A DNA stretch of 64,000 nt from a virus (Duplodnaviria > Caudoviricetes): positions 72,255 to 136,254 of IMG/VR virus record IMGVR_UViG_2864522212_000004; one strand, written 5' to 3'. Below are positions 4,802-56,873 of this stretch, in pieces (position 1 is the stretch's first letter; each line of letters opens with the position of its first letter). Position numbers and translations under genes: made by a program. Under the pieces are notes generated by a model. The model had not been told where the DNA came from and did not search any database. It saw only the letters and a list, made by a program, of their open reading frames with translations.

Positions 4802-5065
4802 TTGTCTTTCCTTATACTATGTCGGTCAGGCTGAACCGTGTCTCCAATACACGGTCGCCGTCCAGGCCTTGTTTCGTGGACAATTTCAGAATGCATCCAA
4901 TGATATGCGCTTGCAAGCGCAACGGTAAGGTGGCCGCTCACAAAAAATATCGGTCAATTTCAATAAAAAACCGGTTAATTACAAGATTTGACGTTATGGT
5001 AAAAACCGCAAGAGTCCAGTGACCATCACTGGTGACAAAATATCCTTCCTATCAGAGGAGACGAT

Positions 5066-8035
5066 ATGGGGAGAAACAACAATCCCACTCGCGGTTCCAC
5101 AATCCGACATGTGGTCCGCACGATCGCGGCGGCCAGTGCGGCCGTCGCCACTTTGGCGGCGGGGTTGCTCGTCGCGGGCACGGCCGACGCGGCCACCATG
5201 CGCGACCCGTTCGAACGCTCCATCCAGAACGGCAACCCCGGTTTGTGGACGAACGTGGGCACGATCACGTTCAGCAACGGGAAGAAGTACGAGAACATGG
5301 CGCAGTCGCTGGGCGTCGTCGACAGGGTCAACGGCAAGAACACGTACTGCATCGAGGCCGGCACGCTCTACACGGGCACGACGGGCGACTGGGGCGACTG
5401 GACGGACGAGCGGACGAAACCGGACGCGCAGCGGCTCGCCTGGCTGGCCGACAGGTACAACGGGGACCGGGATGATCTCACGCAGGCCGCGATCGCGGGC
5501 CTCATCCACCAGAAGCTCGACCCGATGGGCAACGAATACCTGAGCGGCCTCCGGCAGCTCGGCTGGGCGGACGAGCCCAGCTGGGACGCGTACACGGCGA
5601 AGATGAACAGCCTGTGGACGGAGGCGGTCAACGGCACGCCCAAGGACCTCGACATGCAATACCGGTACACGACCGGCAAAAGGAAAGGCCTAGTCACCCC
5701 GAGCATCATGAACGGGAACGGCGTCGAAATCGCGGGCATCCAGTACACCGTGACCCTGAAGGGCCCGGCCGTGTTCGACCAGACCGGCACGAACACGATC
5801 AGCGGCACCACCACGAACGAGGCCATCCACCTGTCATGGACCGCAACAGGCAATGGCAAGGTTACTAGCATTGTTCAGCATAAGATCCCGAAGGCCACCA
5901 GACTGGAATCCCCGAACCAGAACCTGATGGGCCCGACCGACCCCCAGACCGTGTCGAAGAACATCCAGTTCGAGGTGCTGAACAACTTCAAGCCGACCAT
6001 CCAGTCCGACCAGTCGGACCATCGCATCGAATACGGGCATGCGCCCGAGGATGATCTGACCTGGCATGTGGACCCGACGGGCGGCGACTGGATCCAGGGC
6101 GCGACCATCAAGAGCACCGGCACCCTCTACTACTTCGCGAAGAAGCCGGTCGAGGGCCGGACGACCGTCAAGGATGGGGTGAAGGCCGCGACCGCGACCG
6201 TCGCCGGCGACAGGGACGGTGCCACCAGTCATGTGGACGCCTCCTCCATCGCCATGGACCCCGGTTTCGTGAAGGCCCACCCGGGAGCCACCCCGTCGAG
6301 CCTGCCCGCCACCGGCTGGTACACGTGGGTGTGGGAGATCACGCCCGGCATGCAGGACGCCAACATGAGGCAGTACCTGTCCCCGGACTACGACTGGTCT
6401 GACAACGTGCTGGAAGCGGAGACCACGCTGCACGTGCGCGGCATGCAGCCGACCATCACGTCCAGCGTGTCCGCCGCCTACAGGACCGACCAGAGCAAGG
6501 TGACCGGCGCCGACGGCATCGAACGGCCCGCCGTCCAGATCGGCTCCGCGGCCGCGTCCGACAGGACCGATGTCGTCTACCTTGAAAAGGGCGGCGTCAT
6601 CCGCGACAAGGTCACGCTGGGCGTGTCCGACGTGAACGGTGACGGCAAGACCGACACCGCCGACTGGCTGCACACCAAGGACGGCCAGGGCGAAGGCAGG
6701 GAAACGGAAGCCAACCAGATCACCATCCGCGTGAACGGCACGCTCTACGGGGGCATGACCCGCGAACAGGCCGAACAGGCGCAGAAGGATACCGCCGCAG
6801 GCAAGACCGTCGAACTGCCCAAGCAGGCCGTGAAGCTCGCCACCACCACGTTCACGACGAACAAGGCCGGCGACTACCTCCTGTCCAGCAGGAAGGGCGA
6901 GAGGCCTGCCGGCGTGTGGAAGGCCGAAAACGGGATCGACCTGACGAACCCGCCATCCGGATACGCGACGTTCGTGTACGACATCGCCAACAGGGACCAG
7001 GACACGAAAAACCAGACCGGCATCGAACCGTCCAGGGACTACCCGTTCGCCAAGGACGTGCACGAAGCCCCGTTCACGGCGGATGAGACCGTCATGTTCC
7101 GCCTCACCCCGAAGCTCGACTCCACAGTGTCCAGCAAGGAAGTCAAGGCGGGGGAGACCACCGTCGACAAGCTCGTCGTCGCCAAGACCAACGAAAAGGA
7201 CGTGTGGCCCACCTACCCGGAGACCAACGTCACCGAAGGCGAAACCCCGAAGGGCACCCCGCTGAGCCTCGACTTCCACGGCGTCCTCTACAAGGTGAGT
7301 GACGACCCGTCCGCCGCGATCGAGGAAACCGACACCGTGCCCGAAAACGCGGTGAAGGTTCACGAAACCGACATCAAGGATGTCACCAAGTTCGGCACCT
7401 ACACGACCGACTCGTTCACCCTGACCGAATCGGGCACCTACGCTTGGCATTGGGTCATGACACCGAGCCTGACCGGCGACCAGAACCATAATCCGCTCGC
7501 CGCCCTCGCATGGCGTCAGCTCACCCACGGCAAGGTGCAGCACGCTTTCGGACTCGCATCCGAGATCGTGCGCGTCCGGAAGCCTGAAACACCGAAGTGC
7601 GAGGTGTCCACAAAGTCGCAGGGTGAGGTCACGTTCGAAAACGGCAAGGCCGACCTGCACGATGAGCTCCTGCTTAAGAACTGCTCGGATGCGGCCAAGG
7701 CTGAATTCGAATTGTGGAGGCAGGCCGACGGCGACCAGTCGGGAGACGTGCTCATCACCGTCACCGGCAAGGTCGACGCGAAGGACGGCATCCACTCGCC
7801 GACCGTGACCGTGCATGAAACCGGCACCTACTACTGGCGTGAGAAGGTGTACGACCAGACGGGCAAGCTTATCTCCTATGGTGACGCGCGCAAACCGAAC
7901 GAGACTGTGCTCGTCAAGGAGAAGGGTCTCGCCTCCACCGGTGTCGGCACCCCGATGCTCCTGTGGGCCGGGGTCCTCGCCGGAGCTGGTATCGCTCTCG
8001 CTCTGGCTGGTTCGAGGAAGCGTATCCGCCTGTAA
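5066..8035 (+). CDS. Cell-wall-anchored adhesin with putative N-terminal thioester (TED/TQXA) domain
   Basis: Signal peptide, YCIE, TQAAI and QNLM motifs, Ig-like repeats, LASTG + TM + basic tail. Confidence 0.85.
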   Translation: MGRNNNPTRGSTIRHVVRTIAAASAAVATLAAGLLVAGTADAATMRDPFERSIQNGNPGLWTNVGTITFSNGKKYENMAQSLGVVDRVNGKNTYCIEAGTLYTGTTGDWGDWTDERTKPDAQRLAWLADRYNGDRDDLTQAAIAGLIHQKLDPMGNEYLSGLRQLGWADEPSWDAYTAKMNSLWTEAVNGTPKDLDMQYRYTTGKRKGLVTPSIMNGNGVEIAGIQYTVTLKGPAVFDQTGTNTISGTTTNEAIHLSWTATGNGKVTSIVQHKIPKATRLESPNQNLMGPTDPQTVSKNIQFEVLNNFKPTIQSDQSDHRIEYGHAPEDDLTWHVDPTGGDWIQGATIKSTGTLYYFAKKPVEGRTTVKDGVKAATATVAGDRDGATSHVDASSIAMDPGFVKAHPGATPSSLPATGWYTWVWEITPGMQDANMRQYLSPDYDWSDNVLEAETTLHVRGMQPTITSSVSAAYRTDQSKVTGADGIERPAVQIGSAAASDRTDVVYLEKGGVIRDKVTLGVSDVNGDGKTDTADWLHTKDGQGEGRETEANQITIRVNGTLYGGMTREQAEQAQKDTAAGKTVELPKQAVKLATTTFTTNKAGDYLLSSRKGERPAGVWKAENGIDLTNPPSGYATFVYDIANRDQDTKNQTGIEPSRDYPFAKDVHEAPFTADETVMFRLTPKLDSTVSSKEVKAGETTVDKLVVAKTNEKDVWPTYPETNVTEGETPKGTPLSLDFHGVLYKVSDDPSAAIEETDTVPENAVKVHETDIKDVTKFGTYTTDSFTLTESGTYAWHWVMTPSLTGDQNHNPLAALAWRQLTHGKVQHAFGLASEIVRVRKPETPKCEVSTKSQGEVTFENGKADLHDELLLKNCSDAAKAEFELWRQADGDQSGDVLITVTGKVDAKDGIHSPTVTVHETGTYYWREKVYDQTGKLISYGDARKPNETVLVKEKGLASTGVGTPMLLWAGVLAGAGIALALAGSRKRIRL

Positions 8036-8064
8036 GGCGGTCACGCTGATCGGATAGAAACCTT

Positions 8065-8100
8065 GATGGGCTCATTCCGCCGTAGTGGAGTGAGCCCATC
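8065..8100 (+). terminator. Hairpin terminator
   Basis: gatgggctcattcc..ggagtgagcccatc directly after the stop codon. Confidence 0.65.
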
Positions 8101-8237
8101 CTGCTAAAAGGGGTATGTCGGATTGGTATCAGGTTTTTCTCCTCTGTCCTGATGCTTATCCGACATGCCTTTTCTTCGTATATGCTTGTTATACTGAATA
8201 TGTTCACATAGAAAAAAAATAAGGAGACCAGGAACCC

Positions 8238-8828: not shown

Positions 8829-8840
8829 ACGGTTCCGACA

Positions 8841-9971: not shown

Positions 9972-9977
9972 AAAGAA

Positions 9978-10763: not shown

Positions 10764-13712
10764 TCAGTCCTCGACTGCATGCCATCCATCGGCATGCTTG
10801 GCGGAACGTACACGCACGAGCACGCAGCCAGCACCGGCGATGGTCATGATCGCCGCCAGCGTGGCGATTGCGGTGGTGTCCGATCCGGTGGAGGCCAGAC
10901 CATTGTTCGTCACACCTGCAGCCTGCTTCTTGGCCTGTTCGGCCTTCTGCTTCTTGGCTTCGGCATCCTTCTTGGCTTGGTCGGCCTTCTTCTGGGCTTC
11001 CTGCTGCTTCTTGGCTTCCTCCTCGGCCTTCTTCTGGGCTTCGGCTTCGGCCTGCTTGGCGGCGGCGAGCTCCTTGTCGGACGCCTGCTTGTCGGCGAGC
11101 TTGGCATCATAGTCGGCCTTGGCTTTCTCGTATGCCTTGTCGGCCTCATCCTTGGCCTTGTTCGCCTCGTCGAGCTTCGCCTGGGCGTCGGCCAGCTTCG
11201 CGTTCGCCTTCTTGAGGTTCTCCTCGGCGTTCTGCAGACGCTTGATGGTGTTCTGGGCGTCGTTGAGCTTGCCGGTGGCCGTGTTGAGGTCGTCCTTCGC
11301 CTTCGCGTATGCGGCCTTGGCGTCGGCGATGGCCTCGTCGGCGGCCTTGACCTGCTTGGCGGCGGCTTCAACCTTCGCGTCGGAAACGGTCTTGGCGTCG
11401 AGCGCGGCCTGCTTGGCCTTCTCGGCCTCGGCCTTGGCTGCCTTGGCGGCGGCCAGGTCGGCTGCGGCCTTCGTCTTGTCCGTGTTCGCCTGCTTGATCG
11501 CGGCTTCCGCATCCGTCTTGTTCTTGGCGGCGGTCTGGGTCAGCTTGTCGGCGGTATCGATCTTCGCCTGTGCGGCGGCGACTGCCGTGTTCGCCTTGTC
11601 CACTGCCGTCTGGGCTGCGGTCTGGGCGTCGGTGGCGGCGTCGGCTTCGGACCGGGCTTCCTTGGTGGCCTGCTGGGCGGCGGAGTACGCTTCGTTCTTC
11701 GCCGTCTGATCCTTCTTGGCTTCCTCCAACGCCTTGGCCTTGTCCTCGTTCGCCTTCACGGCCTCGTCATACGCTTTCTGCGCCTCGTCGGCGGCGGCCT
11801 GCAAATCCTTGGCCTTCTGCGCGGCCTGCTGGGCTTCCTCGGCGGCCTTCCGTGCGGACTGCTGGGCGGCGGCCAGCGCCTTGGCCGCATCGGAAGCGTC
11901 CTGTGCGGCCTGCTTGCTCTTGGACAATGCGGTCTGGTATGCGGCGTCGGCTCCGGTCAGGGAATCACGGTAGGCAGTCAAATCAGTCAGGTATGCGTCA
12001 ACGTCCATGATGCGGCCCGCGTCGGAGCCGATTCCGTTAGCGTTTTCGGTGAACAGCTGACTATGGGTGTTCCCGCCGATACCCGTGATGTTGCCGTTCT
12101 GGCTGACGCCGAAACCGGTGAGGGTCAAATCGGGGTTGACCAGCGTGGTGTAATGGCCATAAGCGCAGGGTTTGACGGGCTTGCCGTCCGAGGCCTTGCA
12201 ATCCAGGACACCGTCGGACATGTCCTTCTCATACATGGACTTCTCCGTGTCGTACCAGCCCTTAAAGGGATCAGTGTAACCCCAGGCGAGGTTTTCGCTG
12301 GCGGGGAATTGAAGTGGATGGTTCACGTTGTTGTTGGCATAATCCGCATCCGCCATGGCCTGTGCCATCAGGGTGTCACTGACCTTGAGGGGTTGCAGGC
12401 CTTCCTTCGCGCGAAGCTGATTGGCTTCCTGGATGAACTTCAGGGCCTCGATCATGTTGTCCAACGTGGTCGCATCACCCTTGGCACCATTATGAATGGC
12501 GTCAAGATACTCGGTGACGGTCGGATCGGTGAGAACCTTGACTGCCTGAGAGGCACCCTTGTCGCCGAAGTAGGCCACTGCGCCCTGAGACAGCTTGTCC
12601 TGAGCCTCGTCTGCCGCTTCCTTCTTGGCGTCGGCCTCGCTCTTGGCATCGGCGGCGGCCTGCTGCTTCGCCTCGGCGTTGGAAGAGGAGTCGGACACCG
12701 CCTTGTCGGCATCCTTCTGCGCCTGTTCCGCCTTCTGCTGGGCGGTGGCGGCGTCGGCTGCGGCCTTCTTCGCCGCTTTGAGCTTCGCGGCCAGGTCGGA
12801 AAGACCTCCATCGTCCTTGGACAATTGCTCGACCTTGGCGTCGGCCTTCTGCTTGGCTTCAAGCGCCTTGGCCTCGGCCTGCCTGGCCGCATCCAGCTTG
12901 GCCTGCGCGGCGTTCACCGCCTCGTCGGCCTTCGTCTTGTCGCCGGTCGCCGAAGCCTGCTGCCTCCTGGCTTCCGTCAGCTCCTTCTCGGCGGCGGCCT
13001 TGTCGGCCGCGGCCTGCTTCGCGTCCGCGTCGGCCCGGTCGGCCTTCTTCTGCGCATCACTGATGGCGGTATCCGCCGCATCGGCCTTCTTCTGCGCGTC
13101 CGTGGCCTGCCTGTCGGCCGCATCGATATCGGTCTGGGCCTTGTCGGCGTCCTGCTGATGGGAGGCGGATTCGGCCGTGGCCTCATCCTTCGCGGTCTGT
13201 GCGGCCTGCTTGTCGGCTTCGCCCTTCGACTGGTTGCTGGAGGCCTGCTGCATGGCCTTGTTGGCGTCGTTGATGGCGTTGGACGCGTCGTTCGCGGCCT
13301 GCTGCGCGGCCGCGATCTTGTCGGCCGTGCCGGTCGCATCCTGTGCGGCCTGCTGCTGGGCCTTGTTGGCGTCGTCGTAGTTCGCCTGCGCCTGCTGCTG
13401 GTTGTTTGCGGCTGTCTGCTGCTGGGCGGCGGCGGCGTCGAGGTTCTGCTTGGCGGTGTCCAGTGCGGCTGCGGCGGCGTCGGCCTTGGCCTGTGCTTCG
13501 GTCACGCCGGTCGGGGATGCCTGTGCGATGGCCTGGTTGGCTTCGGTGGTGCTCTGCTGTGCCTGCTGGATGCTGTCTTGGGCCTGTGTGATTGCCTGAT
13601 TGGTTTGGTCGCCGGTGGTTGTGGTTTCGTCGGCCATTGCGACTGCCGGAGCGGCAAGGGTTGCCATCACGGCGGTGGTTGCCGCTGTGATCTTGGTGAT
13701 GCCGTGTGTCAT
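10764..13712 (-). CDS. CAP (SCP)-domain coiled-coil surface protein, PrgA/surface-exclusion-like
   Basis: Signal peptide; A/K/Q/D coiled coils on both sides of a CAP domain (NQLRAKEGL, ENLAWG, GHYTTLVN); LASTG anchor. Confidence 0.85.
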   Translation of the reverse strand: MTHGITKITAATTAVMATLAAPAVAMADETTTTGDQTNQAITQAQDSIQQAQQSTTEANQAIAQASPTGVTEAQAKADAAAAALDTAKQNLDAAAAQQQTAANNQQQAQANYDDANKAQQQAAQDATGTADKIAAAQQAANDASNAINDANKAMQQASSNQSKGEADKQAAQTAKDEATAESASHQQDADKAQTDIDAADRQATDAQKKADAADTAISDAQKKADRADADAKQAAADKAAAEKELTEARRQQASATGDKTKADEAVNAAQAKLDAARQAEAKALEAKQKADAKVEQLSKDDGGLSDLAAKLKAAKKAAADAATAQQKAEQAQKDADKAVSDSSSNAEAKQQAAADAKSEADAKKEAADEAQDKLSQGAVAYFGDKGASQAVKVLTDPTVTEYLDAIHNGAKGDATTLDNMIEALKFIQEANQLRAKEGLQPLKVSDTLMAQAMADADYANNNVNHPLQFPASENLAWGYTDPFKGWYDTEKSMYEKDMSDGVLDCKASDGKPVKPCAYGHYTTLVNPDLTLTGFGVSQNGNITGIGGNTHSQLFTENANGIGSDAGRIMDVDAYLTDLTAYRDSLTGADAAYQTALSKSKQAAQDASDAAKALAAAQQSARKAAEEAQQAAQKAKDLQAAADEAQKAYDEAVKANEDKAKALEEAKKDQTAKNEAYSAAQQATKEARSEADAATDAQTAAQTAVDKANTAVAAAQAKIDTADKLTQTAAKNKTDAEAAIKQANTDKTKAAADLAAAKAAKAEAEKAKQAALDAKTVSDAKVEAAAKQVKAADEAIADAKAAYAKAKDDLNTATGKLNDAQNTIKRLQNAEENLKKANAKLADAQAKLDEANKAKDEADKAYEKAKADYDAKLADKQASDKELAAAKQAEAEAQKKAEEEAKKQQEAQKKADQAKKDAEAKKQKAEQAKKQAAGVTNNGLASTGSDTTAIATLAAIMTIAGAGCVLVRVRSAKHADGWHAVED

Positions 13713-48000: not shown

Positions 48001-48285
48001 GATAATGCCGCTCGATGGTTCGATGCGGCTGGTTATGCTGCCGACATTGCTTCCCCATCGGCCGGACGGAAGACATGTCGTGTAATCGACTTGGGTGCTT
48101 GTGGTCGTAGCGCATGCCGGCGCGCTCGCGCCTCCGTCGTTTTCGACCATGGCGAATGCTTGGGAGGGCAGTACGGCCACTGTCATCAGAACGACGAGCA
48201 GAACAATGAACAGCATGTTCCGTCGCGCTTTCATCCTGACCGGGAGGCTGGGCTGCATCTGGGTTGAAGCGCTCACAGTATCCAC
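45034..48285 (-). CDS. Large polytopic T4SS channel protein, VirB6-like
   Basis: Multiple TM clusters, large extracellular loop, Gly/Ala-rich cytoplasmic tail; GTG start after gaaggag. Confidence 0.65.
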   Translation of the reverse strand: MDTVSASTQMQPSLPVRMKARRNMLFIVLLVVLMTVAVLPSQAFAMVENDGGASAPACATTTSTQVDYTTCLPSGRWGSNVGSITSRIEPSSGIIGFLANVPALISHTTRDILPNMLMQITQLCWSSALSLSQFAASFTPLKTAGASVDHATAKLIDNVMAGGIPAALMVTAIVVWLLAAGFDIGTTKEASKRLLATVLCLAALIVLGTGASKTAENATEPATGSPWWVVNTINGAVNKLTVGLDLDGLNDGESNMMAFSNKALNRNTNCQDYLYAMHQQYDTATSGNGGDTSSITKAVNRMWEETALRSWVTMQWGNPSAGPNTPSGVADNAQQAYCHVLDMNTNTDPAVQMTLTNAATGLSIDSDTAEWLFSEHGWIDPQDSSVNDKEKEQNDRDKYVRLTRAGIFWETCGIDGSGKVYGRDGWNILVKNMGDKDTGAIKNGKLTVRLKKDGFSDISGGNGAHFYGDDDKIDQNILQLCNVALGTKQFTGDQYRAFHNDNDFRDSSGNVQNTNIADAANLGWRFDIPNVGGTWREANLGDTQDSSTGQGAMRITLDNLYGNSAPDNLGAFGSVLGGICNMIVWGLLSVILIMTKLMLVLMVLFLVVAFLVRAFPIGEAPKNVLKNWVKYTCNLSMTGGLYSALGAIASFICQLMLKFCSEMSSSFMYNVISGFSPVLAIAAISLFCTSVLKVGNPFSFKAMMGIATGGAMAGGVLAGLRRIGGGIGSGLLMRRLLTSRNHGGMSSRNAGPRHRMFGPTAGESKLDSMLDSERKNLDLDGGDRNLYGRNAKEYDAIAARGADSLSYRWGRMNEGTVRGSLAGVAARFTNRADRAQAFMTGGMSYDDRVKNYMARHPGASLGRARTMAKGASLLNQTARGLGGGAMLLGATGKAALGVMQSQPLRDVVKRGAKVAATGIAAAALTSNPITLPAGAVALGKLATNRDLWHGAKVGIGALGARAEKSRNEILSLGNRPTTVMTPIAPVEDNPFDLDESLNEMHSEDGSLNSDGDKAFGVVENSMMHNFRQQGHMSEQEAADALESARITGEVKEAAAKYHANLNAPKNPPRQKTSDEFETDGDAF

Positions 48286-48641
48286 ATCTCCTTCAGACTG
48301 CTTAGATGCTCTGGCTGATTCGAATTGGGGTAGAAAACCTCTCCGGCGATGTTCCGGCTCTGCAATCTCCTGAGGAGTCTTTTCCATCGGACCTGCTGGG
48401 TCCGGTCTTTGACTTGGCCGACCATGAGGAATGGTGCGGCGACCAAGCCGATGAGGATGAACACCACGCCGAATGTGATGCCGATGATCGGGGCGAGCAT
48501 AAGACAGATCAACAGTCCTATAACACCGCCGATGATTGTCGAGAACACGGTCTTGGATCGGGCTTCCGTGCTTTTCGTGATCATGAACGTGTTCTTACGT
48601 TCGATTGATGCGGTGGATGAGACCTCGGTGATGTCATCCAT
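48273..48641 (-). CDS. VirB3/PrgI-like membrane protein
   Basis: 2 TM helices, basic tail, located between pilin-like and VirB6-like genes. Confidence 0.55.
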   Translation of the reverse strand: MDDITEVSSTASIERKNTFMITKSTEARSKTVFSTIIGGVIGLLICLMLAPIIGITFGVVFILIGLVAAPFLMVGQVKDRTQQVRWKRLLRRLQSRNIAGEVFYPNSNQPEHLSSLKEMWIL

Positions 48642-48692
48642 GGTTTCCCTTGGATGCAATTGTCTTTGCTCGCCCATGAATATGTTCCCCGA

Positions 48693-49040
48693 TCAGATTC
48701 CGAGGTAGTCTTTGCCCTGGCTGCCCACGGCGTTGACGATCCAGTCAAGAGCTGTCAGCAATGCCGGGATGGTTATGGTCGGGCCAGCGAAGATGAAGAT
48801 GACGGCGAGAACGACGATGACTCGTGTGACGCTTGGACAGAACATGGAGACCAGCTGGTTGCTTCGCCCCATCGCCTTGCTGATTCCTCCCAGGATAAGC
48901 CCCAAGGCCAAGATCACTGCGGCAGCGGCGCCCACCTTGGTGATGAGCTGTCCGGCGGTCGAGTTGAGGATGCCGTCGAACATGGCGTGATAGCTTCCGA
49001 CAAGATTGCTGGAAGCGGCGATTTCTATGGTGTTGCCCAT
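48693..49040 (-). CDS. VirB2/pilin-like membrane protein
   Basis: About 115 aa, two hydrophobic helices, first gene of the unit. Confidence 0.5.
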   Translation of the reverse strand: MGNTIEIAASSNLVGSYHAMFDGILNSTAGQLITKVGAAAAVILALGLILGGISKAMGRSNQLVSMFCPSVTRVIVVLAVIFIFAGPTITIPALLTALDWIVNAVGSQGKDYLGI

Positions 49041-49237
49041 TATTGGATTCCCTTCGAATTTGGTTTGAAGGAACCCTCCTGCGTTTCCCGAGTGTATCAA
49101 CGGAATCGGTTGATAACGATAGGTTTTCGGTTTTTAACAAAGTTTCTTGCATTCTCAGACAACACGGGGAACACAGATTAAGAAAAACCCATCCGGCATC
49201 AATGGAAGCCGGATGGGTTGGCATGTTTTTTTCGGTC

Positions 49238-51853
49238 CTACTTGTCGCCGGGGCGATAACCGTCGTCGAAGTCTTTCACGCTCACGATGAACGCCGGCTG
49301 GATCTGTTCCATGTTTCTGGTTCTTACAGCGGCATGGTATTTGGGGAGGTTCGTCACCGCTCCTCCAGTCCACCCATCCAATCCCTCATTGTCGGTCAGA
49401 CGTGCCGCGGTCAGCGTGGCTATGCGCGGAATCGACGTGTTGTAGCTGATGAACGTCGTGTACCCCAGGAACGAATCCAACAACGTGTCGGACAACTGGG
49501 TCGGGTATTGGGTGGCGAACACGAGAATCAATCCGAACGAACGCCCCTGCTCCCTCAGATTCTTCAACACGTCGTCCGACCCGTTCGCCAGCAGGCTCAG
49601 CTCGTCGCAGACGAGCATCGTGTGTTTGCCAAGCGTTAACCAGTCCTTGCAGTGTGCGAACACCGTGTTCCAGAACCGGTACATGAGCCACGAGCCCAGA
49701 ATCTTGTCCATGAGTTCGGGAAGCGAGTGGCCATTGTGCGGGGCGAGCACGATGTGATAGTCGCCCGGGTGATCCAATATCCACTTCCATGTGACGGTGC
49801 TGCGTCGCGGTGTGAACATGTGTTCGATGGCGAGGAACTGGTTGACCTTGTTCACCGAGGCGTTGGTACGCTGCAGTATTTCACGATCGCTTCGCGCCGC
49901 CTGCCCCTTCTGATCCGGTCGTCCGTACAGTTGTTCTGCGGCACGCGCGGCCAACGTCATGTCTATTCCGAGAGGATCGTCCTTCAACTCCAATGCGAGA
50001 GCCCTGCATACCTGTCCAAGCGCTCTGGCTGATCCGGTTTGACCATCCGACCCACACAATGCGACCACGGCCCAGCCGATAGGTGACTGCTGTTGCCTGA
50101 GTTGACCGGCCCCGGGATACTGTTGCTCGAGTTGTCTGCATCTTCTTAGGATGTCCCCCGGCTTGTGTTGGTCGTATCGGCTTGCGGCCACGCCGATGGT
50201 CATGGATTGGGTGATGATGTTTTGGGAGTCGTTCTGAATGTCGCCGGCATTGAATGCGTATCTCATGGTTTTGGCGACGCTTTCCGCCGTCTCCTGGGCG
50301 TTCCTTCCCTCCTGCATTCCGAGCAAATCGAGACCGATGCTGGAAGGATCAGTGAGATATATGACACGTGGATGGGAGTCAATCCCCTGCGTTTGCCGAT
50401 ACCGGTCCAGCACTTCCACTCCGGTGTCGTCCTTCATCCAGAAGTGGATGAGTCGTGAATCCGTTCCCCACACGTCACGGCTGGTATCGTTGCGATGGCT
50501 GATGGCCCATTGGCTGATGCCGTGGGTCAGAACGGTTTTTCCTGATCCGGCTTCACCGCTGATTGCGATTCCGCCATAGAGCTGTGTCGGATCCAAGTAT
50601 CCGGGACGTCCGGAATCGTCCAATCCGATCAGGACGCCTCCATGGGACAATGGTTCGGGCACCGGGTGAAGGTCCTGTTTCACCGCCGTGGATTTCTGCA
50701 CCGGCATGAACAGTGTGGTCGTGGTCATTGGGCTGAAGACCAAAGTGGTGCGTTGCGGGCCATATCCCGTCGCATACACTCGTTTGTCTTTCATGCCGAG
50801 TTTTGTTTCGGTGTCACTGAGATTCGCCTTGCGTTTGCGGCGAAGCCACCAGTATCGGCGTGGGCGTTGGAGAATATCATCCCATAGAGTGTTCCTCCAC
50901 CATCTGATTCCAGCTGCAACGGTGAAGGCAAGAGGAATGATCCACAACCATGACGGTATCGGCAACAGCATCAAAGAGCAGTACGCCAACAGTCCAAGAC
51001 ATGCGAATTTGTAGTGCGGCGGTACTCGGAAGTACATTCGAGTGCTGTTGTCGTCGTTCAGCATGGCTTTCGCGTTTGCGGAGAGTAGTCCACTCAAAAC
51101 CCAAGGCACCAGCAGCATCGCCGCTACCGTTCCCGCCAGCCAGAAGAATGTGGCAAGACGAATCGGAGTGATGACGGACAATACCATCGTCAACAGGGTG
51201 ACAGCCAAGGTCACGATGAGTCCGCCCAACTTTGGGTAGCTGGGATGACTGCTCATGTTGGAGAGCAGCGGGAACATGGCCTGTCCAGCCCGTTGTGCGA
51301 GTTCTGCGTTCCGGCGGCTGTCGGCGCATGCTGCGGTGACTCGCGCGCAGAGCGTGTGTGCTGCGACAAATTCGTTGCCGTCCTCGACGGTGGAATGCTC
51401 GTCGGCAACCCAATCTCGAATTCGGGCCTGTTCGAAATATCCTTGCCTGCGGAGCGTTACGCTGACATAACTGTCTGCCGGCATCAATGCTTCGACGCTT
51501 TTCCGAATGCCGGCGGAATCGGTGCGCATCTTCTCCATCGTCGCCTTTGAATTCAAGCGGGCCCGCCATGGCACAAGAGAGTGAGCTGATCTGCTGATTC
51601 CTTCCGGCAGTTCGGGTTCGCCGTTCCCTGGCAGTGGGCTGATGGAAAAGCCGGCGAGATCACCCGCCTTGCGTATGCCTTCGCCATCGCCATGCACATA
51701 TTCACGGACCGGCTCGTTTCCCACTCTGACGAGCAGCAGCGTGCAGTCCTCCAGATTTCCTGGGACATCATCCGCGATGGATCTCAACTGGTCGCCATCG
51801 AGTTGGCTGATGCTGCGAGTCACCTCGTACCATGCTTTTTCTTTTTCGCTCAT
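49238..51853 (-). CDS. Type IV coupling protein (VirD4/TraD-like ATPase)
   Basis: TM segments, Walker A GEAGSGKT, Walker B LVCDE, REQGRSFG..ATQYPTQL. Confidence 0.85.
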   Translation of the reverse strand: MSEKEKAWYEVTRSISQLDGDQLRSIADDVPGNLEDCTLLLVRVGNEPVREYVHGDGEGIRKAGDLAGFSISPLPGNGEPELPEGISRSAHSLVPWRARLNSKATMEKMRTDSAGIRKSVEALMPADSYVSVTLRRQGYFEQARIRDWVADEHSTVEDGNEFVAAHTLCARVTAACADSRRNAELAQRAGQAMFPLLSNMSSHPSYPKLGGLIVTLAVTLLTMVLSVITPIRLATFFWLAGTVAAMLLVPWVLSGLLSANAKAMLNDDNSTRMYFRVPPHYKFACLGLLAYCSLMLLPIPSWLWIIPLAFTVAAGIRWWRNTLWDDILQRPRRYWWLRRKRKANLSDTETKLGMKDKRVYATGYGPQRTTLVFSPMTTTTLFMPVQKSTAVKQDLHPVPEPLSHGGVLIGLDDSGRPGYLDPTQLYGGIAISGEAGSGKTVLTHGISQWAISHRNDTSRDVWGTDSRLIHFWMKDDTGVEVLDRYRQTQGIDSHPRVIYLTDPSSIGLDLLGMQEGRNAQETAESVAKTMRYAFNAGDIQNDSQNIITQSMTIGVAASRYDQHKPGDILRRCRQLEQQYPGAGQLRQQQSPIGWAVVALCGSDGQTGSARALGQVCRALALELKDDPLGIDMTLAARAAEQLYGRPDQKGQAARSDREILQRTNASVNKVNQFLAIEHMFTPRRSTVTWKWILDHPGDYHIVLAPHNGHSLPELMDKILGSWLMYRFWNTVFAHCKDWLTLGKHTMLVCDELSLLANGSDDVLKNLREQGRSFGLILVFATQYPTQLSDTLLDSFLGYTTFISYNTSIPRIATLTAARLTDNEGLDGWTGGAVTNLPKYHAAVRTRNMEQIQPAFIVSVKDFDDGYRPGDK

Positions 51854-51869
51854 ATCCGATGCCCTCCTG

Positions 51870-52325
51870 TCAATTCGATTGTTCTGCGGTTGCCGGTTCG
51901 GTGGAGTAGAGCATGGCCAAGGGGAATCCTTCCGGCAAGTCGAACTTGGTCAGCTTCTCTCTTTCCAACAGTTGATATAGCCATGTGGTCATGCGGACCG
52001 TCGCATCCTTGTCTGCCAACGCCCATCCCAAATCCGCATACCCGTCCTTGACGGTGCTCTGGTCGCCGATGGTTTCCCTCATCCGTCGTATGGTCTTCAC
52101 CGCAATGTATTTGGAAACGTCGAACATGATCGCATCCAATTGCCAGAGTCGTATTTTTTTCAAAGCCGGATTGCGTTGCAGGTTGACCATGAGGAACGGG
52201 ACCACCAGCGAACGGCGTCCTGTTTCGCAAAGCGTCCGTATCTTCTGCAATGCACGGTAGCGTTCGGTCTTGGCTTCCTCCAAACGCTGCTGGTTGGTTG
52301 CGAAATTTTCAGGAAGAGAGTTCAA
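51870..52325 (-). CDS. Hypothetical protein (possible relaxosome accessory)
   Basis: RBS ggagg + TTG; lies between the putative relaxase and the coupling protein. Confidence 0.6.
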   Translation of the reverse strand: MNSLPENFATNQQRLEEAKTERYRALQKIRTLCETGRRSLVVPFLMVNLQRNPALKKIRLWQLDAIMFDVSKYIAVKTIRRMRETIGDQSTVKDGYADLGWALADKDATVRMTTWLYQLLEREKLTKFDLPEGFPLAMLYSTEPATAEQSN

Positions 52326-53511
52326 CGCTTTCACCTCCGATATACCCGTAGAATCCTCCCCGGTATGCTTCCGGCTTCCGCCATCCACTGACATCCCAGC
52401 CCCATTGGTGTCTGATTGTTTCATCCATGACCGTCCATCCCCAGTCACGGATTGTCGTCACAGGTTTTGTTGATGGGGTGCATCGGCTCCAGTCCGGTGA
52501 GAACATGCTGCGTTCGACGTTCAGCATGTCCCGGTATGTTCCGATCCCGCCGGTCGGGTTGCCTTGCTCGTCGAACCAGTCGTCCCATAACGCGAATCCC
52601 ATACGCGACGCCACGGATGGGTCGCCGACCAACATCTCGTCGGCATGGCTTGCCGTTTCGATGATGCTGCCCAATGCCGGGTACTGCCATTGGCTGGTGT
52701 CGCGTATGAGCAACCAGATACAGATGAGTCCACGTCGTTGCATCGGCGAGTAGGCGAGCAGCTTCGACCAATTGGAGATTTTCTGGCTCATGTTATTTGG
52801 GTGGACCTGCACTTCGATTCCCGCAAGCACGTTGTTCGATGCGAGTGCGGTGATGTCCGTCGAACAGCTGTGAGGCAGTCCGGCTTCGCTGACCGCCTGC
52901 GGGTCGATGAGCCGGAACGCTCCCCAACCGTCGCCGCCGACGAGTTTGATGTCCGGATTGACACCGAGATGCAGTCCGACGTGCGCCGCATACGTATTGT
53001 GGCGCACGTGGCGTCTCATTCCGATCAACTGCTTGTCCGAAAGCATTCTACGAAGCCAAGTTGCTGAATTAAACAGGCCGAGCGTGTTTCGGATGAGTTT
53101 CTTGTCGGAGCTCAACGACAACCAGGTTTGCGGGATTATCTGCCCGGAAAATCTTTCGTAAGGACTGAAGCCGATGTCGATGACTCCCAGCCGACACAAC
53201 GCGCCGTACAGGTTCGGTTCGTCGCGATGGAATTCGGGAGCTCCTTTCACGGAGAGTCCCGCCCGAAGCTGGTCGACGGTGCATGTCCTCCATGAAAGCA
53301 ATGCGCCGATGATGCTCGTAACCAATTCACTGTTTGCCTTGACCATGCTTTCCGCGAACAATCGGTTCGGGACGATCCACTGATGACGTTGCGCCAACAC
53401 TCCGGGGTGTTCGTTGTTCGCCACGTCGCTTCCGCGAATCCAATCGGCGTCGCTACCCATCGGCCATAGAGCACGGTCATCGGGATTCGGTGTGAGTGAG
53501 AGATCAACCAC
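52309..53511 (-). CDS. Putative replication-relaxation (MOBL-like) relaxase
   Basis: N-terminal wHTH (CTVDQL), HVRHNTYAAH, D..GIEVQ nuclease-like motif; upstream of the coupling protein. Confidence 0.55.
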   Translation of the reverse strand: MVDLSLTPNPDDRALWPMGSDADWIRGSDVANNEHPGVLAQRHQWIVPNRLFAESMVKANSELVTSIIGALLSWRTCTVDQLRAGLSVKGAPEFHRDEPNLYGALCRLGVIDIGFSPYERFSGQIIPQTWLSLSSDKKLIRNTLGLFNSATWLRRMLSDKQLIGMRRHVRHNTYAAHVGLHLGVNPDIKLVGGDGWGAFRLIDPQAVSEAGLPHSCSTDITALASNNVLAGIEVQVHPNNMSQKISNWSKLLAYSPMQRRGLICIWLLIRDTSQWQYPALGSIIETASHADEMLVGDPSVASRMGFALWDDWFDEQGNPTGGIGTYRDMLNVERSMFSPDWSRCTPSTKPVTTIRDWGWTVMDETIRHQWGWDVSGWRKPEAYRGGFYGYIGGESVELSS

Positions 53512-54661
53512 GATGGAACCACCCTTTTTTCTTTTTCACTTCGAACTTGGCCGGTTCGAATCCTTTATCGGGCAGAACCCATTCAAGGGTCTGCTCTCTC
53601 GCCAAGTCCAGATTCGAGTCAGCCCAATTCGATTTACCGGATGCGATCAGATTGCCGGCCTCGACCGTCTGGTACTCGACTCCGAGAAAAATCCCGTATC
53701 TTGAATAATCAAGTGGCCGGTAGTCTGTCATTCCGACCGGGACCGTGTCTTTTATTCCGATACATTCTCGGGGCAAACCGTAACGGGGAAACGCGCTGAG
53801 CAGATTCAACGCATCTCCTTGCGTTTGCACGCCGGCTTTGACGATGACCAGGCAAAGGTCGCCGGCGAGAACGTAGGGGACGACCATTCCTCCGGCGGCT
53901 GTGGTGCTGTCCTGCAGATCATCTGCGCTGATACGGTCGAGATCCAAGACGACGAAGTCCCAGAGCTTGCGTGCTTCCTCGATGTATGCGCGGTAGTGGT
54001 CCCACGACACCATCGCACCGGCCGGTGGAGCGAACGAAACATCGTAACCGATGTTGAACATTCGTCCCGAATTGGCGCCGTATTGTGCCGCCATGCCGGG
54101 ACGCCAGTCGGCTATGGTGCGCGCCGGCATACGCTGCCCAGGGTCGAAGAAGGAACGTTGCGATGACTGTCTCATGTTGCCGTCGATAAGGAGGGGGCGT
54201 AGTCCTTTTTCTCTTGCCCGCTCGCATAATCTGCGTGAGGAAACCGTCTTTCCCACGCCTCCAGTGTTCGATGTGACAATGATCATGGGTGCCGTCTGGC
54301 GGGTCCTGTTCAGGATGATATCGCCTACCAGACGCTTGTCGATTGTCTGTATCCGCCAGAACTCGTGGACGAAATCCGTGATGCTTCGGTCCATGAAATA
54401 TTCGGGGAGGGCCTGCGCTCCGATGGGTATCTGTCCGCGGTCGATCCAGTAGATTGTCCAGCCTGCATCGGCGACCGGCATCCAGTTTCCCGGGAGGTTC
54501 GTGAACACGATTCCCTGACGGCCTGGACGCACCGGGTGCCTTGTCAGGAAGTCTGCCTGGGCTGCGAAATCCTCTCCTGCGGGCACCCTCCAACGCTGTT
54601 CGGGGACCTTGGATCGCAGCACGTCGAGGATGCCTCCATGTCCGATTATCAGACTTGCCAT
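53504..54661 (-). CDS. MinD/ParA/CpaE-like ATPase
   Basis: SNTGGVGKT, LIDGN, FVVLDLD; C-terminal KKKKGWF. Confidence 0.75.
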   Translation of the reverse strand: MASLIIGHGGILDVLRSKVPEQRWRVPAGEDFAAQADFLTRHPVRPGRQGIVFTNLPGNWMPVADAGWTIYWIDRGQIPIGAQALPEYFMDRSITDFVHEFWRIQTIDKRLVGDIILNRTRQTAPMIIVTSNTGGVGKTVSSRRLCERAREKGLRPLLIDGNMRQSSQRSFFDPGQRMPARTIADWRPGMAAQYGANSGRMFNIGYDVSFAPPAGAMVSWDHYRAYIEEARKLWDFVVLDLDRISADDLQDSTTAAGGMVVPYVLAGDLCLVIVKAGVQTQGDALNLLSAFPRYGLPRECIGIKDTVPVGMTDYRPLDYSRYGIFLGVEYQTVEAGNLIASGKSNWADSNLDLAREQTLEWVLPDKGFEPAKFEVKKKKGWFHRG

Positions 54662-54739
54662 CTTTTCTCCAAGTTCCTTTGAACTGTTTTTTGCTTGTTC
54701 CGGGGGTTTGCTCCGGAAAGAGACCATTTTTGACGAAAC

Positions 54740-55230
54740 AACACTGATTTAGTTTTATTGACTGTTTTTTGTTTTTTGTTGCTTGTTCGTCAATCGTCCT
54801 GTTTGTTCATTTCTTGATATTACGTCATATCTTGTTATGTGCCGAATATTTGTTGAAATTAACCATTCAGGATGATGACTTTGCTGATGTATGGGTTGTT
54901 GCGGTTCGTTGCTTTGTTGCGTTTTCGTTCCGTAGGTTCGTTGCTTTGTTGGCAATGTTGCGGTTCGTTGCTCTGGTTTTACCCTGCTGTGATGTGGTAA
55001 TGGTGTCTTGGTGTTTGTGTGATGTGTTGCGGGTTGGCTTCTTTCTCTTGTTCTCGGATTGTCTTTTTCTTATTTTTTCTTCTCTTCTTTTTTTCTGACT
55101 TTTCTTGGTTGCCTGTCTGCTCTTTTGTTTTTGTCCGTGATTTTTCTGGTCCGCTAGTTTGCATGAGAAACGGCGGCCGCGCGACGCCGCGCCGAAGTCA
55201 AAACGGTTAATTTCAATATTTTTTCGGTTA
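54740..55230. other. AT-rich, strongly T-skewed noncoding region with direct repeats; candidate oriT or oriV
   Basis: GGTTCGTTGCTYTG at 54903, 54935 and 54962; long pyrimidine tract about 55035-55150; lies between divergent genes. Confidence 0.55.
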
Positions 55231-55304
55231 TTCGTTGTTTGCTCGGATACAGTCGTTGAAGACGGTTCACTCGAACGGTCCTGCCTTGACGAAGGGAGTT
55301 AACG

Positions 55305-55973
55305 ATGGCAGATTTTCCATGGAACAACAATTTCGGCACCCCGACCCCAGCCCCGGCGCCGGTCGACGATTCCAAGCCGGTGAACGAAGCCGGGCAAGCG
55401 GACGATTCTGAGAACTGGTCGGCATCGGGCGAGGATTCTCAGCCTGACGTCCAGCCGGAAGAGACGGATTCCGTCGATGAGACAACGCCCGACCGTGAGG
55501 AAGAAACCTCCGTCAAGGGTGCCAAGACCACGCGGCGCAAGACCGCGAAGAAAAACTCGTCCTTCCCTCATTTGGAAGCCGCCTCGTACGCGAAGATCAA
55601 GGACATGCTCGACGTTCTTTCCGATGACCGTACCGCGAACATCGCCAAGATTCTGTGCGAGACCAGCAAGACCGACGCTCCGGTTCTGCTTGAGGTGTTG
55701 ACGGAAACCAAGACGCGGAAGCGGGTCGCCGAATTCTCCAAGTTCGTCAAGGAACTGGCTGGCGCTCAACCGTCCGACCTGAAGATGAGGCTTGCTTTCG
55801 CGTTCATGGAAGACAAGACTCTGTCCAAGACTCTGTTCGCTGTTTTGAATGCCGCCGAACCGGATCGTGGTTTCGGCCGCGCGTCCGGTGAGCCGATGAA
55901 GGATGTCAATGCGGTGGCTGAACACTGGGGTGACGGCGTTGATCTCAGTGTGGTTGAGAAGCTGAAAATCTGA
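55305..55973 (+). CDS. Hypothetical protein (acidic N-terminus, helical C-terminus)
   Basis: RBS aagggag; terminator downstream. Confidence 0.8.
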   Translation: MADFPWNNNFGTPTPAPAPVDDSKPVNEAGQADDSENWSASGEDSQPDVQPEETDSVDETTPDREEETSVKGAKTTRRKTAKKNSSFPHLEAASYAKIKDMLDVLSDDRTANIAKILCETSKTDAPVLLEVLTETKTRKRVAEFSKFVKELAGAQPSDLKMRLAFAFMEDKTLSKTLFAVLNAAEPDRGFGRASGEPMKDVNAVAEHWGDGVDLSVVEKLKI

Positions 55974-55996
55974 CGGCCGGCATCTCGGGATGCTTG

Positions 55997-56038
55997 AACG
56001 GTTGGATACGAACATGGATCCGTATCCAACCGTTTTTT
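55997..56038. terminator. Terminator between convergent genes
   Basis: aacggttggatacg..cgtatccaaccgtttttt. Confidence 0.8.
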
Positions 56039-56039
56039 A

Positions 56040-56873
56040 TTATTCCGCGATGAGCTGCACACGGTTCTCCGCCTTTGGCGGCATCCCGTATGGTCTGATC
56101 ACGAGGCCCGCCCTCGTCAACGAGAATACCCAGATTTTCTGAATCTGGTTGAGCTTTGTGAGGCTGACGGTGAGGTGCTTGGTGGACACCGTCTCCGTGC
56201 TCGTACCGGGGACGATCTTGTATAGATTATTTCGACTGATATACAGTTCCTTCTGCTCCGGACAGTAGAGCGTCGCGAACACCAGCAGATCCAAGGACAG
56301 GCTTCCGCCACTGGTTCCGACGACGGCGGAAAGAGGAATCTCCTTCGGTTCGCGCGACATCAATCGGACGTATTCCCAAGTGAAGGTAATGGTTTTTTCG
56401 TTCCAGCTTTCGCCTTGGACGATGTTCGTCTCTTCGATCGGTTTTATTTCTTTGCCGTCCCTTGAAGTGAACGTGATGTCCTGATAGCCGATGATGCTGG
56501 TGACCGTATTCTGTCGGCCGCAGCCTCCCGTCAGCATGCCCATTCTGCGGGCCACTTGCCGTACGTCCTTGCCGATGGTCAGCGTCCTGGTCTTGCCGTT
56601 GTAATCCGCGTTTTGTGTGTTCACGAATGTCGTGAACAGGATGCTTAGGAGTCGAGGCGTCCTGCCGAATGCGAGCGGATGTTCGTTGCCGCGCACGTAT
56701 GGGATGAGCGGGTATGCCTCTTCCGCGACGTAAAGAATTCCGAATCCTGTGGCTATGCCGTTGTCCATCCCGACGCTTCTCAGCCTGTGTATTTTGTTGA
56801 GCATCCCGACTCTTCCCCTGTTTTTGCTTTTTCGGTTGATACCAACAATTTTACGGTTTTTCATACGCGACAT
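56040..56873 (-). CDS. repA: Plasmid replication initiator, RepA_C (IncW-like) family
   Basis: LAFGRTPRLL, LTIG..RRMGMLTGG, SLSLDL motifs; start may be 56804. Confidence 0.7.
   Translation of the reverse strand: MSRMKNRKIVGINRKSKNRGRVGMLNKIHRLRSVGMDNGIATGFGILYVAEEAYPLIPYVRGNEHPLAFGRTPRLLSILFTTFVNTQNADYNGKTRTLTIGKDVRQVARRMGMLTGGCGRQNTVTSIIGYQDITFTSRDGKEIKPIEETNIVQGESWNEKTITFTWEYVRLMSREPKEIPLSAVVGTSGGSLSLDLLVFATLYCPEQKELYISRNNLYKIVPGTSTETVSTKHLTVSLTKLNQIQKIWVFSLTRAGLVIRPYGMPPKAENRVQLIAE

Follow-up and report, generated by a model that had tools for sequence, protein, structure and literature searches.

A paired direct-repeat element at nine promoters of a Bifidobacterium longum conjugative megaplasmid, with an orphan RepE-fold protein as its candidate reader

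The 64,000-nucleotide stretch analysed here (the window) is part of a 136-kb contig whose host replicon is a pMP7017-type Bifidobacterium longum conjugative megaplasmid. The original prediction had picked out six copies of a 26-bp motif, CGGT-N17-CGGT, at adhesin, pilus, type IV secretion (T4SS) and 'repA' promoters, and all six were found, each at the position and on the strand listed below (window coordinates), together with a new site and the genes that enter the argument.

4951-4986, plus strand: class-1 paired site (box 1 CGGTCAATTTCAATA, box 2 CGGTTAATTACAAGA; -10 hexamer TATGGT at 4995-5000); unit: a 989-aa LASTG surface protein (5066-8035)
23811-23846, plus strand: class-2 paired site, inverted, directly behind the 515-aa gene and its intrinsic terminator; unit: SpaA pilin, 2311-aa LPFTG adhesin, class C sortase and 1025-aa PrgA-like LASTG protein (23666-10764)
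28047-28082, minus strand: class-1 paired site (-10 hexamer TACAGT at 28038-28033); unit: LASTG proteins of 781 aa (27991-25646) and 515 aa (25549-24002)
30634-31736: Xre-HTH/ImmA-like gene pair, another candidate reader
49107-49142, plus strand: class-2 paired site that follows the terminator of the gene for the 871-aa ATPase; unit: 115-aa VirB2-like gene, 134-aa gene and 1117-aa gene (49040-45034)
54830-54865, minus strand: new class-1 paired site (TGGTTAATTTCAACA / CGGCACATAACAAGA; -10 hexamer TAATAT at 54822-54817); unit: CobQ/ParA-like ATPase, 400-aa protein, small protein and 871-aa T4SS ATPase (54727-49238)
55204-55239, plus strand: class-1 paired site, divergent from the 54865 site (-10 hexamer TACAGT at 55248-55253); unit: a single gene for a 222-aa protein (55305-55973), another candidate reader
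56040-56804, minus strand: orphan RepE-fold (Rep-like) protein, the candidate box reader, with a length of 254 aa (ATG at 56804) or 242 aa (start at 56768)
56833-56868, plus strand: class-2 paired site in the promoter of the gene for the Rep-like protein
56926-57123: small conserved ORF of 64 aa, another candidate reader
57674-57688, minus strand: solo box (CGGTTGATATCAAAA) in the 5' leader, directly before the ribosome-binding site of the gene for a 136-aa protein (57668-57260), another candidate reader

The pattern CGGT-N17-CGGT occurs 21 times in the 64-kb window (3.65 ± 1.8 expected), and the six copies reported earlier are the A+T-rich intergenic members among these matches. The 21-bp spacing held, whereas the 26-bp extent did not: the full site is longer and consists of two direct 15-bp boxes (CGGTTAATTTCAAnA; consensus C-G-G-T-T-A-A-T-W-W-C-A-A-n-A) whose starts lie 21 bp apart in all nine sites described below, placing both boxes on one face of the helix. 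Within a box the two conserved blocks, CGGTT (positions 1-5) and CAA (positions 11-13), are about one helical turn apart. Across the 18 boxes G2, G3 and T8 are invariant and C1, C11, A12 and A13 are present in 16-17, while the spacers and remaining box positions vary; the conserved positions named earlier are thus borne out (T8 in 18/18, C11 and A13 each in 16/18, A15 in 9/9 first boxes). The 4951 and 28082 sites also share spacer and flank letters, being nearly identical over 36 nt, and flank sequences in the B. longum family resemble one another too closely for footprinting.

A scoring matrix built from the six earlier sites alone and run over the 136-kb contig, a scan that had been proposed with the original prediction, revealed three extra full sites (window 54865(-), contig 13024(-) and contig 26393(-); scores 54.5, 40.0 and 35.1). 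The nine full sites score 35-57, against a next real score of 13.2 and null maxima of 21-22.5, and every one of them is intergenic at the head of an operon. They span about 117 kb of the contig (13.0-129.1 kb) as dispersed pairs at promoters rather than as an array of the kind seen at an origin, and none belongs to a tandem array next to an unwinding element rich in A+T.

The operons headed by the nine sites comprise about 24 genes: two T4SS units, an FtsK/SpoIIIE operon, a unit with an AAA_10 ATPase and a cell-wall lysozyme, the sortase-pilus, PrgA-like and LASTG-adhesin units, and two small single-gene units. Their products make up the conjugation machinery along with the surface proteins by which mating cells are kept in contact, the FtsK_SpoIIIE and AAA_10 domains extending the list given earlier. 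The LASTG sorting signal is present in the 989-, 781-, 515- and 1025-aa proteins and the pilin carries LPQTG and a SpaA domain, in line with their earlier labels, while the labels 'TED' and 'VirB2-like' found no confirmation in Pfam; the PrgA-like assignment follows published work (PMC10832533, Table S2). The sequences support one plasmid-specific cis element common to the adhesin, pilus, T4SS, FtsK/SpoIIIE and AAA_10 promoters.

In IMG/VR the full motif is found only in contigs homologous to the B. longum megaplasmid, and a scan of 185,579 species genomes returned 32 scattered low-scoring single matches, none in Bifidobacterium. The pilin promoter of pMP7017 carries boxes of a different type (CCGTGAATTATGAAA / CCGTGATTATTGAAA) with both the 21-bp period and the inverted orientation kept; boxes of this type also occur at its Rep-like gene and the neighbour of that gene, and one stands at the place matching the solo box of the 136-aa gene. 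The boxes of pMP7017 have diverged in concert. A third plasmid family has few boxes. They are of the AGGTCAAC type, spaced at 21 bp on the promoter of the CobQ-like gene and present singly at each of the FtsK and surface-protein promoters, and no site is obvious at the Rep-like gene of that family. In sister B. longum plasmids an inverted pair of boxes lies a short way downstream of the start site predicted for repB, which may provide a link to replication.

Other repeats are known in this plasmid family. A 34-bp motif overlies the -10 of 19 pMP7017 promoters (PMC10832533), and RepA and RepB have their own, different repeats (PMC8313286). Like the paired boxes, these are dispersed or repeated, linked to promoters and absent from bifidobacterial chromosomes, but the sequences are unrelated (TATACTGAATATGTCCACATA; RGYGTCARWATTCTA; GGnCnAnnR). 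Identity of the paired boxes with the 34-bp motif (AWAYATGYTATACTGAATATGTCCACATAAAAWA over the -10) was rejected on the same ground; its core, allowing up to 4 mismatches, has 17 matches on the contig, none at CGGTT sites, and the promoters that it does mark, those of ssb, parA, defence and early-type genes, do not overlap with the paired-box set.

The sites adopt two arrangements relative to the promoters. In the six class-1 sites box 2 lies at -35 to -21 with a TANNNT -10 hexamer 8 nt downstream (7 nt in one), box 1 lies at -56 to -42, and the -35 hexamer, CGGTTA, is a poor match to TTGACA. Two of the class-1 -10 hexamers are exactly 7 nt before the ATG, the distance found in leaderless actinobacterial mRNAs. 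In the three class-2 sites the pair follows a terminator and is inverted relative to the downstream gene, so that the motif does occur in both orientations as originally described, and in two of the three a TANNNT follows 10 nt past box 1. On the minus strand of the 23811 site the reverse complement of box 1 places TTGGAA at -35, with TACGTT at 23800-23795, and the 49107 site has, on the same strand, an extended -10, TGaTACACT (49096-49091). At 56833 TAAAAT (minus strand) falls between the boxes, 19 nt downstream of TTGGCA, so that spacer, likely -10 and start region of the Rep-like gene are all overlain by the boxes; both hexamers are kept in pMP7017.

With some confidence we read the motif as a paired operator laid over the core promoters of nine transcription units, and the nine sites look like one plasmid-wide switch. 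Their pattern, position and distribution imply one sequence-specific protein of the plasmid family, since a shared plasmid-specific cis element at many promoters is most naturally read as the mark of a single plasmid-encoded factor with a regulon. Global regulons of this kind are known from other plasmids, namely the KorA/KorB/TrbA system of IncP RK2/RP4 and the ArdK/StbA/KorA/TrwA network of IncW R388, in which one short operator is likewise repeated at many promoters over a large plasmid and ties transfer and backbone functions to plasmid-encoded, autoregulated DNA-binding proteins. Those operators, however, are palindromes for HTH, ParB-type or RHH dimers on Gram-negative plasmids, whereas the sites described here are actinobacterial direct repeats at 21 bp with a Rep-fold candidate reader and with adhesins and pili in the set; the sole inverted arrangement of boxes seen is the one at repB of the sister plasmids.

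The candidate reader is the Rep-like protein, whose own promoter carries a paired site. Its AF2 model (pLDDT 89.3, pTM 0.89) predicts two tandem winged-helix domains in about 250 aa. Foldseek relates the model to RepE54 (E 3e-5, TM 0.55-0.63), and VIA-align gives Z 14.4 over 197 residues (rmsd about 3.8) with RepE54-iteron complexes, Z 12.5 with pi and Z 10.8 with RctB domains 2-3, compared with Z 5 or less for unrelated folds. Pfam, PHROG and PDB sequence searches with the single protein and with 35 aligned homologues gave no match. In the RepE54-iteron structure two winged helices occupy successive major grooves, and the separation of CGGTT and CAA by about one turn is as expected for such binding. 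The predicted tandem winged helices, the 15-bp direct repeats at about two turns and the site on the gene's own promoter are all shared with RepE (F), pi (R6K), pPS10 RepA and RctB; the Rep-like protein differs from these initiators in lacking membership of a sequence family, in having paired sites dispersed at transfer promoters with no origin array, and in belonging to a plasmid family whose replication relies on another protein, RepB. The fold, the site geometry and the position of the gene make the Rep-like protein the probable reader of the boxes. It also counts in its favour that published repeats of other kinds are already assigned to the two other Rep proteins of the plasmid (PMC8313286).

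Its gene (56040-56873) had been labelled 'repA', with a candidate origin beside 55204. It is neither an annotated nor an experimentally defined replicase, the RepA and RepB genes lying elsewhere, and only the repB region, where the origin has been defined, was shown to replicate in this plasmid family (PMC8313286), so that the proposed origin finds no support. Co-regulation by one factor is supported, at the level of sequence, for the adhesin, pilus and T4SS genes but not, as originally worded, for replication. The orphan RepE-fold protein is more likely to be the regulator itself than a replication gene. DnaA, an initiator that is also a transcription factor with dispersed DnaA boxes, offers a precedent for an initiator-type DNA binder controlling many promoters through scattered origin-type sites, although it is a chromosomal protein of AAA+ plus HTH fold and its boxes are not phased pairs.

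In the mechanism that we propose, Rep-like monomers would bind one per box, as with iteron-binding initiators, and would keep RNA polymerase off the -35 or, at their own gene, off the -10/+1. Transfer and adhesion genes would thus be held low in established hosts and, on entry into a new host, would fire briefly until the protein had built up. Repression by promoter occlusion is the mode that we moderately favour. Activation of the six class-1 promoters by the same reader through the same operator, with repression kept for its own gene and possibly for the inverted sites, appears less probable, even though the strict class-1 register and poor -35 suit an activator at least as well as a repressor. 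Protein bound at -56 to -42, where upstream activators and UP elements sit, and at -35 to -21, a fixed 7-8 nt from TANNNT in 6/6 sites, could replace the contact missing at CGGTTA in the manner of PhoB/OmpR family members, SARPs and lambda cII. The repeats of these direct-repeat activators likewise lie over a poor -35, a short and constant way from the -10, but have an 11-bp period or the form TTGC-N6-TTGC, compared with 21 bp in 9/9 sites here, three of them inverted, and no OmpR/SARP-type regulator is among the products annotated on the sister plasmid. Moreover, in the three inverted sites the opposite end of the protein would face polymerase, so that one contact surface could not serve both classes, and the T4SS genes would fall under opposite regulation. 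The fixed register may itself be inherited, given the letters shared by the 4951 and 28082 sites, and the Rep-fold proteins known to us are autorepressors and not activators, which we also count against activation.

It is likewise doubtful that another plasmid protein reads the boxes and the Rep-like gene is just one more target, a reading for which several features speak. The HTH_3 protein adjoins a Peptidase_M78/ImmA-like gene in an ImmR/ImmA-type layout (30634-31736), the classic transfer switch of ICEBs1-type elements; the 136-aa gene has the solo box and the 222-aa gene a class-1 site; and these candidates have all diverged strongly from their pMP7017 versions, with identities of 39% for the Xre-HTH, 49% for the 136-aa and 59% for the 222-aa protein as against 48% for the Rep-like protein, so that divergence does not single out the latter. 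Xre-type dimers usually read inverted repeats, however, and the contig scan placed no CGGTT site near the Xre-HTH/ImmA pair. The 64-, 136- and 222-aa candidates have no recognisable DNA-binding fold and no Pfam/PHROG matches, the 222-aa protein, for which the model is poor, being acidic and disordered in one half with a helical C-terminal domain. Direct 15-bp boxes at 21 bp suit a two-winged-helix monomer, as the Rep-like protein is predicted to be.

That the boxes are replication iterons with incidental effects on transcription, serving as dispersed copy-control, handcuffing or pairing sites or as a second origin at about 54.8-55.3 kb, with the Rep-like protein driving a third replicon, is improbable. 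The Rep fold, the iteron-like geometry, two inverted pairs on either side of a T-rich stretch of 338 bp that contains three more repeats, and the inverted pair at the sister-plasmid repB promoter are consistent with it, but pairs instead of arrays, scattered over the contig and locked in register to the -10 hexamers of transfer genes, and replication shown for repB alone, argue against it. Least probable is the absence of any factor, the sites being a duplicated promoter cassette, as the 4951 and 28082 resemblance might suggest, or elements of an alternative sigma factor, since only particular positions are fixed among the nine sites, both boxes changed in concert in pMP7017, a sigma-factor promoter could not occur in both orientations, and the plasmid annotation lists no sigma factor.

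To our knowledge pMP7017-type megaplasmids are the only conjugative plasmids of bifidobacteria. One study reports them from roughly one in ten gut samples of infants and mothers (PMC10832533). The paired-box element is distinct from the sole promoter motif already published for this plasmid family and yields a testable wiring diagram for control of the whole transfer and adhesion apparatus, in which one operator links nine promoters to a single leading candidate protein. More tentatively, we suggest that a RepE-fold family, seen until now only on Bifidobacterium megaplasmids, may have been taken over as a master regulator of conjugation that reads iteron-like box pairs on secretion, DNA-pumping, pilus and adhesin promoters and on the sister-plasmid replicase promoter, making transfer, cell-cell adhesion and possibly replication depend on how much of one protein is present, with protein and boxes co-evolving between lineages. 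If the Rep-fold protein is the reader, this would be an unusual reuse of an initiator fold as a global transcription factor, and the promoters and operator could serve as regulated parts in bifidobacterial genetics.

A single 136,254-bp contig carries the window as its right-hand 64 kb. The window matches complete megaplasmids of Bifidobacterium longum (169-198 kb) at >99% identity; these are members of the same family as the conjugative B. breve plasmid pMP7017. The source record is classed as viral, the host chromosome is not part of it, and genes were annotated from the near-identical plasmid NZ_CP143940.1, Pfam and sorting signals.

The window contains 21 matches to the pattern CGGT-N17-CGGT (3.65 ± 1.8 expected), and the six copies reported in the original prediction were recovered among these matches as A+T-rich, intergenic sites. 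When a position matrix trained on those six sites alone was scanned across the whole contig, nine sites scored 35-57, while the next best reached ≤13.2 and null maxima stayed at ≤22.5, both for first-order Markov shuffles and for random A+T-rich sequence. Three sites lie beyond the six reported (window 54865(-), contig 13024(-) and contig 26393(-), the latter two counted on the full record). Alignment of the nine sites defines the repeat unit as a direct 15-bp box with a start-to-start distance of 21 bp, in which G2, G3 and T8 are invariant (18/18 boxes), C1, T4, C11, A12 and A13 are kept in 16-17 of the 18, and the CGGTT block is separated from the CAA block by about one helical turn. A solo box is present at window 57688(-), directly 5' of the ribosome-binding site of a 136-aa gene.

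Paired sites and the genes under them (class 1, site oriented as its downstream gene; class 2, site inverted to it; window coordinates unless marked contig)
4951 (+), class 1: 989-aa LASTG surface protein
23811 (+), class 2: SpaA pilin, 2311-aa adhesin, class C sortase, 1025-aa LASTG protein
28082 (-), class 1: two LASTG proteins
49107 (+), class 2: VirB2-like protein of 115 aa, proteins of 134 aa and 1117 aa
54865 (-), class 1: CobQ/ParA-like ATPase, two unknown proteins, 871-aa T4SS ATPase
55204 (+), class 1: 222-aa unknown protein
56833 (+), class 2: Rep-like gene
contig 13024 (-), class 1: FtsK/SpoIIIE operon
contig 26393 (-), class 1: 1439-aa AAA_10 conjugation-type ATPase (intein-like insert), cell-wall lysozyme

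This gene set is the transfer apparatus together with surface adhesion, roughly 24 genes over 45 kb; the pMP7017 orthologue of the 1025-aa protein is PrgA-like by HHpred (PMC10832533, Table S2). The AAA_10 ATPase (contig 22017-26438, -) carries a Hom_end homing-endonuclease match mid-protein, suggesting an intein. The 222-aa protein (window 55305-55973) has an acidic disordered half and a basic patch, and across three plasmid families its start (MxDFxxWxFNNN) and tail (WGDGVDLSxxxxLKI) are invariant. It may be a docking or signal motif; its AF2 model is poor (pLDDT 58.8) and an Atlas look-up returned its own cluster only. Between the convergent 222-aa and Rep-like genes lies a perfect 14-bp inverted repeat (AACGGTTGGATACG ... 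CGTATCCAACCGTT, window 55997-56034), probably a two-way terminator. A small unannotated ORF of about 64 aa containing GCRLYIDMARNAYGKLDPKLVSCRIHYRL (window 56926-57123, -), located between the 136-aa gene terminator and the Rep-like promoter, is clearly conserved in pMP7017, has no Pfam match and is a possible further regulator. The spacer between the divergent sites at 54865 and 55204 (window 54880-55180) holds 147 T vs 20 A in 301 nt and three copies of TGTTGCGGTTCGTTGCTTTG; the corresponding spacer of a third plasmid family shows an equal strand skew over about 1 kb. An oriT, a long leader and an unwinding region are possibilities for this spacer.

The boxes hold a defined register on the promoters. 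In the six class-1 sites a TANNNT-type hexamer (TATGGT, TACAGT, TACAGT, TAATAT, TAGATT, TATCGT) follows box 2 after 8 nt, or 7 nt in one site, which places box 2 at -35 to -21 and box 1 at -56 to -42. At the two class-1 sites outside the window (contig 13024 and 26393) the hexamer ends exactly 7 nt 5' of the ATG, as at the leaderless genes that are common in Actinobacteria; this spacing lends independent support to the hexamers as true -10 elements. The class-2 sites number three (23811, 49107 and 56833). Those at 23811 and 49107 lie directly past the intrinsic terminator of the upstream gene, and box 1, read as its reverse complement, contains a -35-like hexamer (TTGGAA, TCGTTA), with TACGTT or TGaTACACT 10 nt past the box. 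On the Rep-like gene promoter (56833) TAAAAT lies between the boxes and TTGGCA 19 nt upstream, both conserved in pMP7017; a consensus promoter scan of window 54600-58000 returned no sigma-70-type promoter. A reading of the three inverted sites as plus-strand antisense-RNA promoters was rejected, since only poor hexamers (TTAAAA, ATTCTC, AACATA) stand at the class-1 offset. In the sister plasmid NZ_CP143940.1 (about 175780) the upstream homology of the 4951-type site, at a break adjoining a TnpB element, stops precisely at base 1 of box 1, and the box is therefore the outer edge of a conserved promoter module.

The motif was then sought beyond this plasmid. A degenerate pattern scan of IMG/VR yielded 81 loci, among which high full-motif scores were restricted to loci homologous to this plasmid, sorting into the same nine orthologous groups; unrelated loci matched the short pattern only. 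With a stricter pattern and one genome per species (185,579 species), 32 scattered single matches with low full-motif scores were obtained, none of them in Bifidobacterium. For the full motif, the refuting check named in the original prediction thus comes out in favour of a plasmid-specific element. Phylogenetic footprinting within the B. longum family was uninformative, flanks being conserved as much as boxes, and three large RNA runs with the same species label gave 0 reads on window 44000-60000, a result with no bearing on expression. Among the listed sources that carry the stretch, none is recorded as RNA.

In diverged plasmids the box changes in form. The CGGTT form is absent from pMP7017, where the pilin promoter carries CCGTGAATTATGAAA and CCGTGATTATTGAAA followed by TAGAAT, with the same 21-bp period and the same inverted orientation; in pMP7017 the Rep-like gene and the 136-aa gene orthologue have boxes of this type as well. 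Both boxes of the pilin-promoter pair are altered alike, as would be predicted from an altered specificity of a single reader. The gene order (Rep-like, 222-aa-like, long strand-skewed spacer, CobQ-like, T4SS ATPase) is preserved in a third megaplasmid family, found in IMG/VR. Its CobQ-like promoter bears three AGGTCAAC-type boxes at 21 bp and its FtsK promoter the identical box, and at a surface-protein gene a related box precedes TATATA by 7 nt. The matrix from this contig found no match in the third family and one built from its own few boxes gave only a handful of believable sites; its box set looks small and poorly defined.

The CGGTT box is unlike all three repeat systems published for pMP7017, namely the eight 15-bp RepA repeats (RGYGTCARWATTCTA) and the 20-mer RepB iterons with core GGnCnAnnR (PMC8313286), and a 34-bp motif (AWAYATGYTATACTGAATATGTCCACATAAAAWA) over the -10 of 19 promoters (PMC10832533). 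The 34-bp motif core (TATACTGAATATGTCCACATA, up to 4 mismatches) has seventeen matches on the contig (window 8190(+), 40345(-), 40778(-), 44550(-) and the divergent pair 57827(-)/57878(+), with eleven more on the contig), at promoters including ssb and parA. None of the seventeen overlaps a CGGTT site; as all lie at other promoters, the two motifs mark disjoint sets of promoters on the plasmid. Contig 13348-13560, between repA and the divergent FtsK operon, contains the published RepA repeats (GTGTCARAATTCT, 20-21 bp period), at a distance of about 300 bp from the contig 13024 CGGTT site.

A candidate reader is the Rep-like protein, the 242/254-aa product of window 56040-56804, for which sequence searches of Pfam, PHROG and PDB gave no match. 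About 30 full-length relatives (24-47% identity) emerged from an exhaustive HMMER search, those with a name being hypothetical proteins encoded on contigs of 80-140 kb from Bifidobacterium sp. SO1, B. jacchi and B. thermophilum; single remote homologues used as queries against genome, viral and metagenome contigs returned nothing, except P0014, which led to the third plasmid family. An AlphaFold2 model using the alignment of relatives reached pLDDT 89.3 and pTM 0.89. Its best 40 Foldseek matches are all iteron-bound initiators, with VIA-align Z of 14.4 for RepE54-iteron, 12.5 for pi-iteron, 10.8 for RctB domains 2-3 and 7.0 for dimeric RepE (unrelated chains ≤5). The "repA" label of the original prediction is thus borne out for the fold (a RepE54-type match) and not for the role, since RepA and RepB lie elsewhere and RepB is the replicase (PMC8313286). 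The plasmid has three Rep-fold proteins, two with known repeats and the Rep-like protein an orphan; the CGGTT boxes are iteron-like repeats that are likewise orphans, and one site lies on the promoter of the Rep-like gene itself. The Rep-like protein shares 48% identity with its pMP7017 orthologue, and since the identity of its neighbours is low too, divergence alone fails to single it out.

A link to replication is a lead only. Five sister B. longum plasmids carry an inverted box pair (TTGAAATATCAACGGTTAATAACAA) about 95-120 bp upstream of a repB-type gene (NZ_CP143940.1 108554-108578), just downstream of the position matching the pMP7017 repB start site (PMC8313286); a 34-bp motif copy on the opposite strand adjoins the pair. 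In pMP7017, some plasmid factor represses the repB promoter 1.6-fold, whereas RepB itself showed no binding there (PMC8313286). The link goes no further than a lead because the repB-type region with the inverted pair is missing from this contig and pMP7017 does not share the sequence.

Judged from sequence, the paired boxes are in phase, sit in register on the core promoter elements that serve a coherent set of genes, and are specific to the plasmid family. We infer that one protein reads all boxes, and that this reader would be the Rep-fold protein, with one monomer per box. Activation through the boxes in place of repression is a serious rival, because the box-to-hexamer register is fixed in class-1 promoters and their -35 is poor. 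We favour repression by promoter occlusion, as it would cover both orientations and the site on the Rep-like gene's own promoter, and would fit the usual logic of conjugative plasmids, in which negative feedback is combined with brief, strong expression on arrival in a new host.
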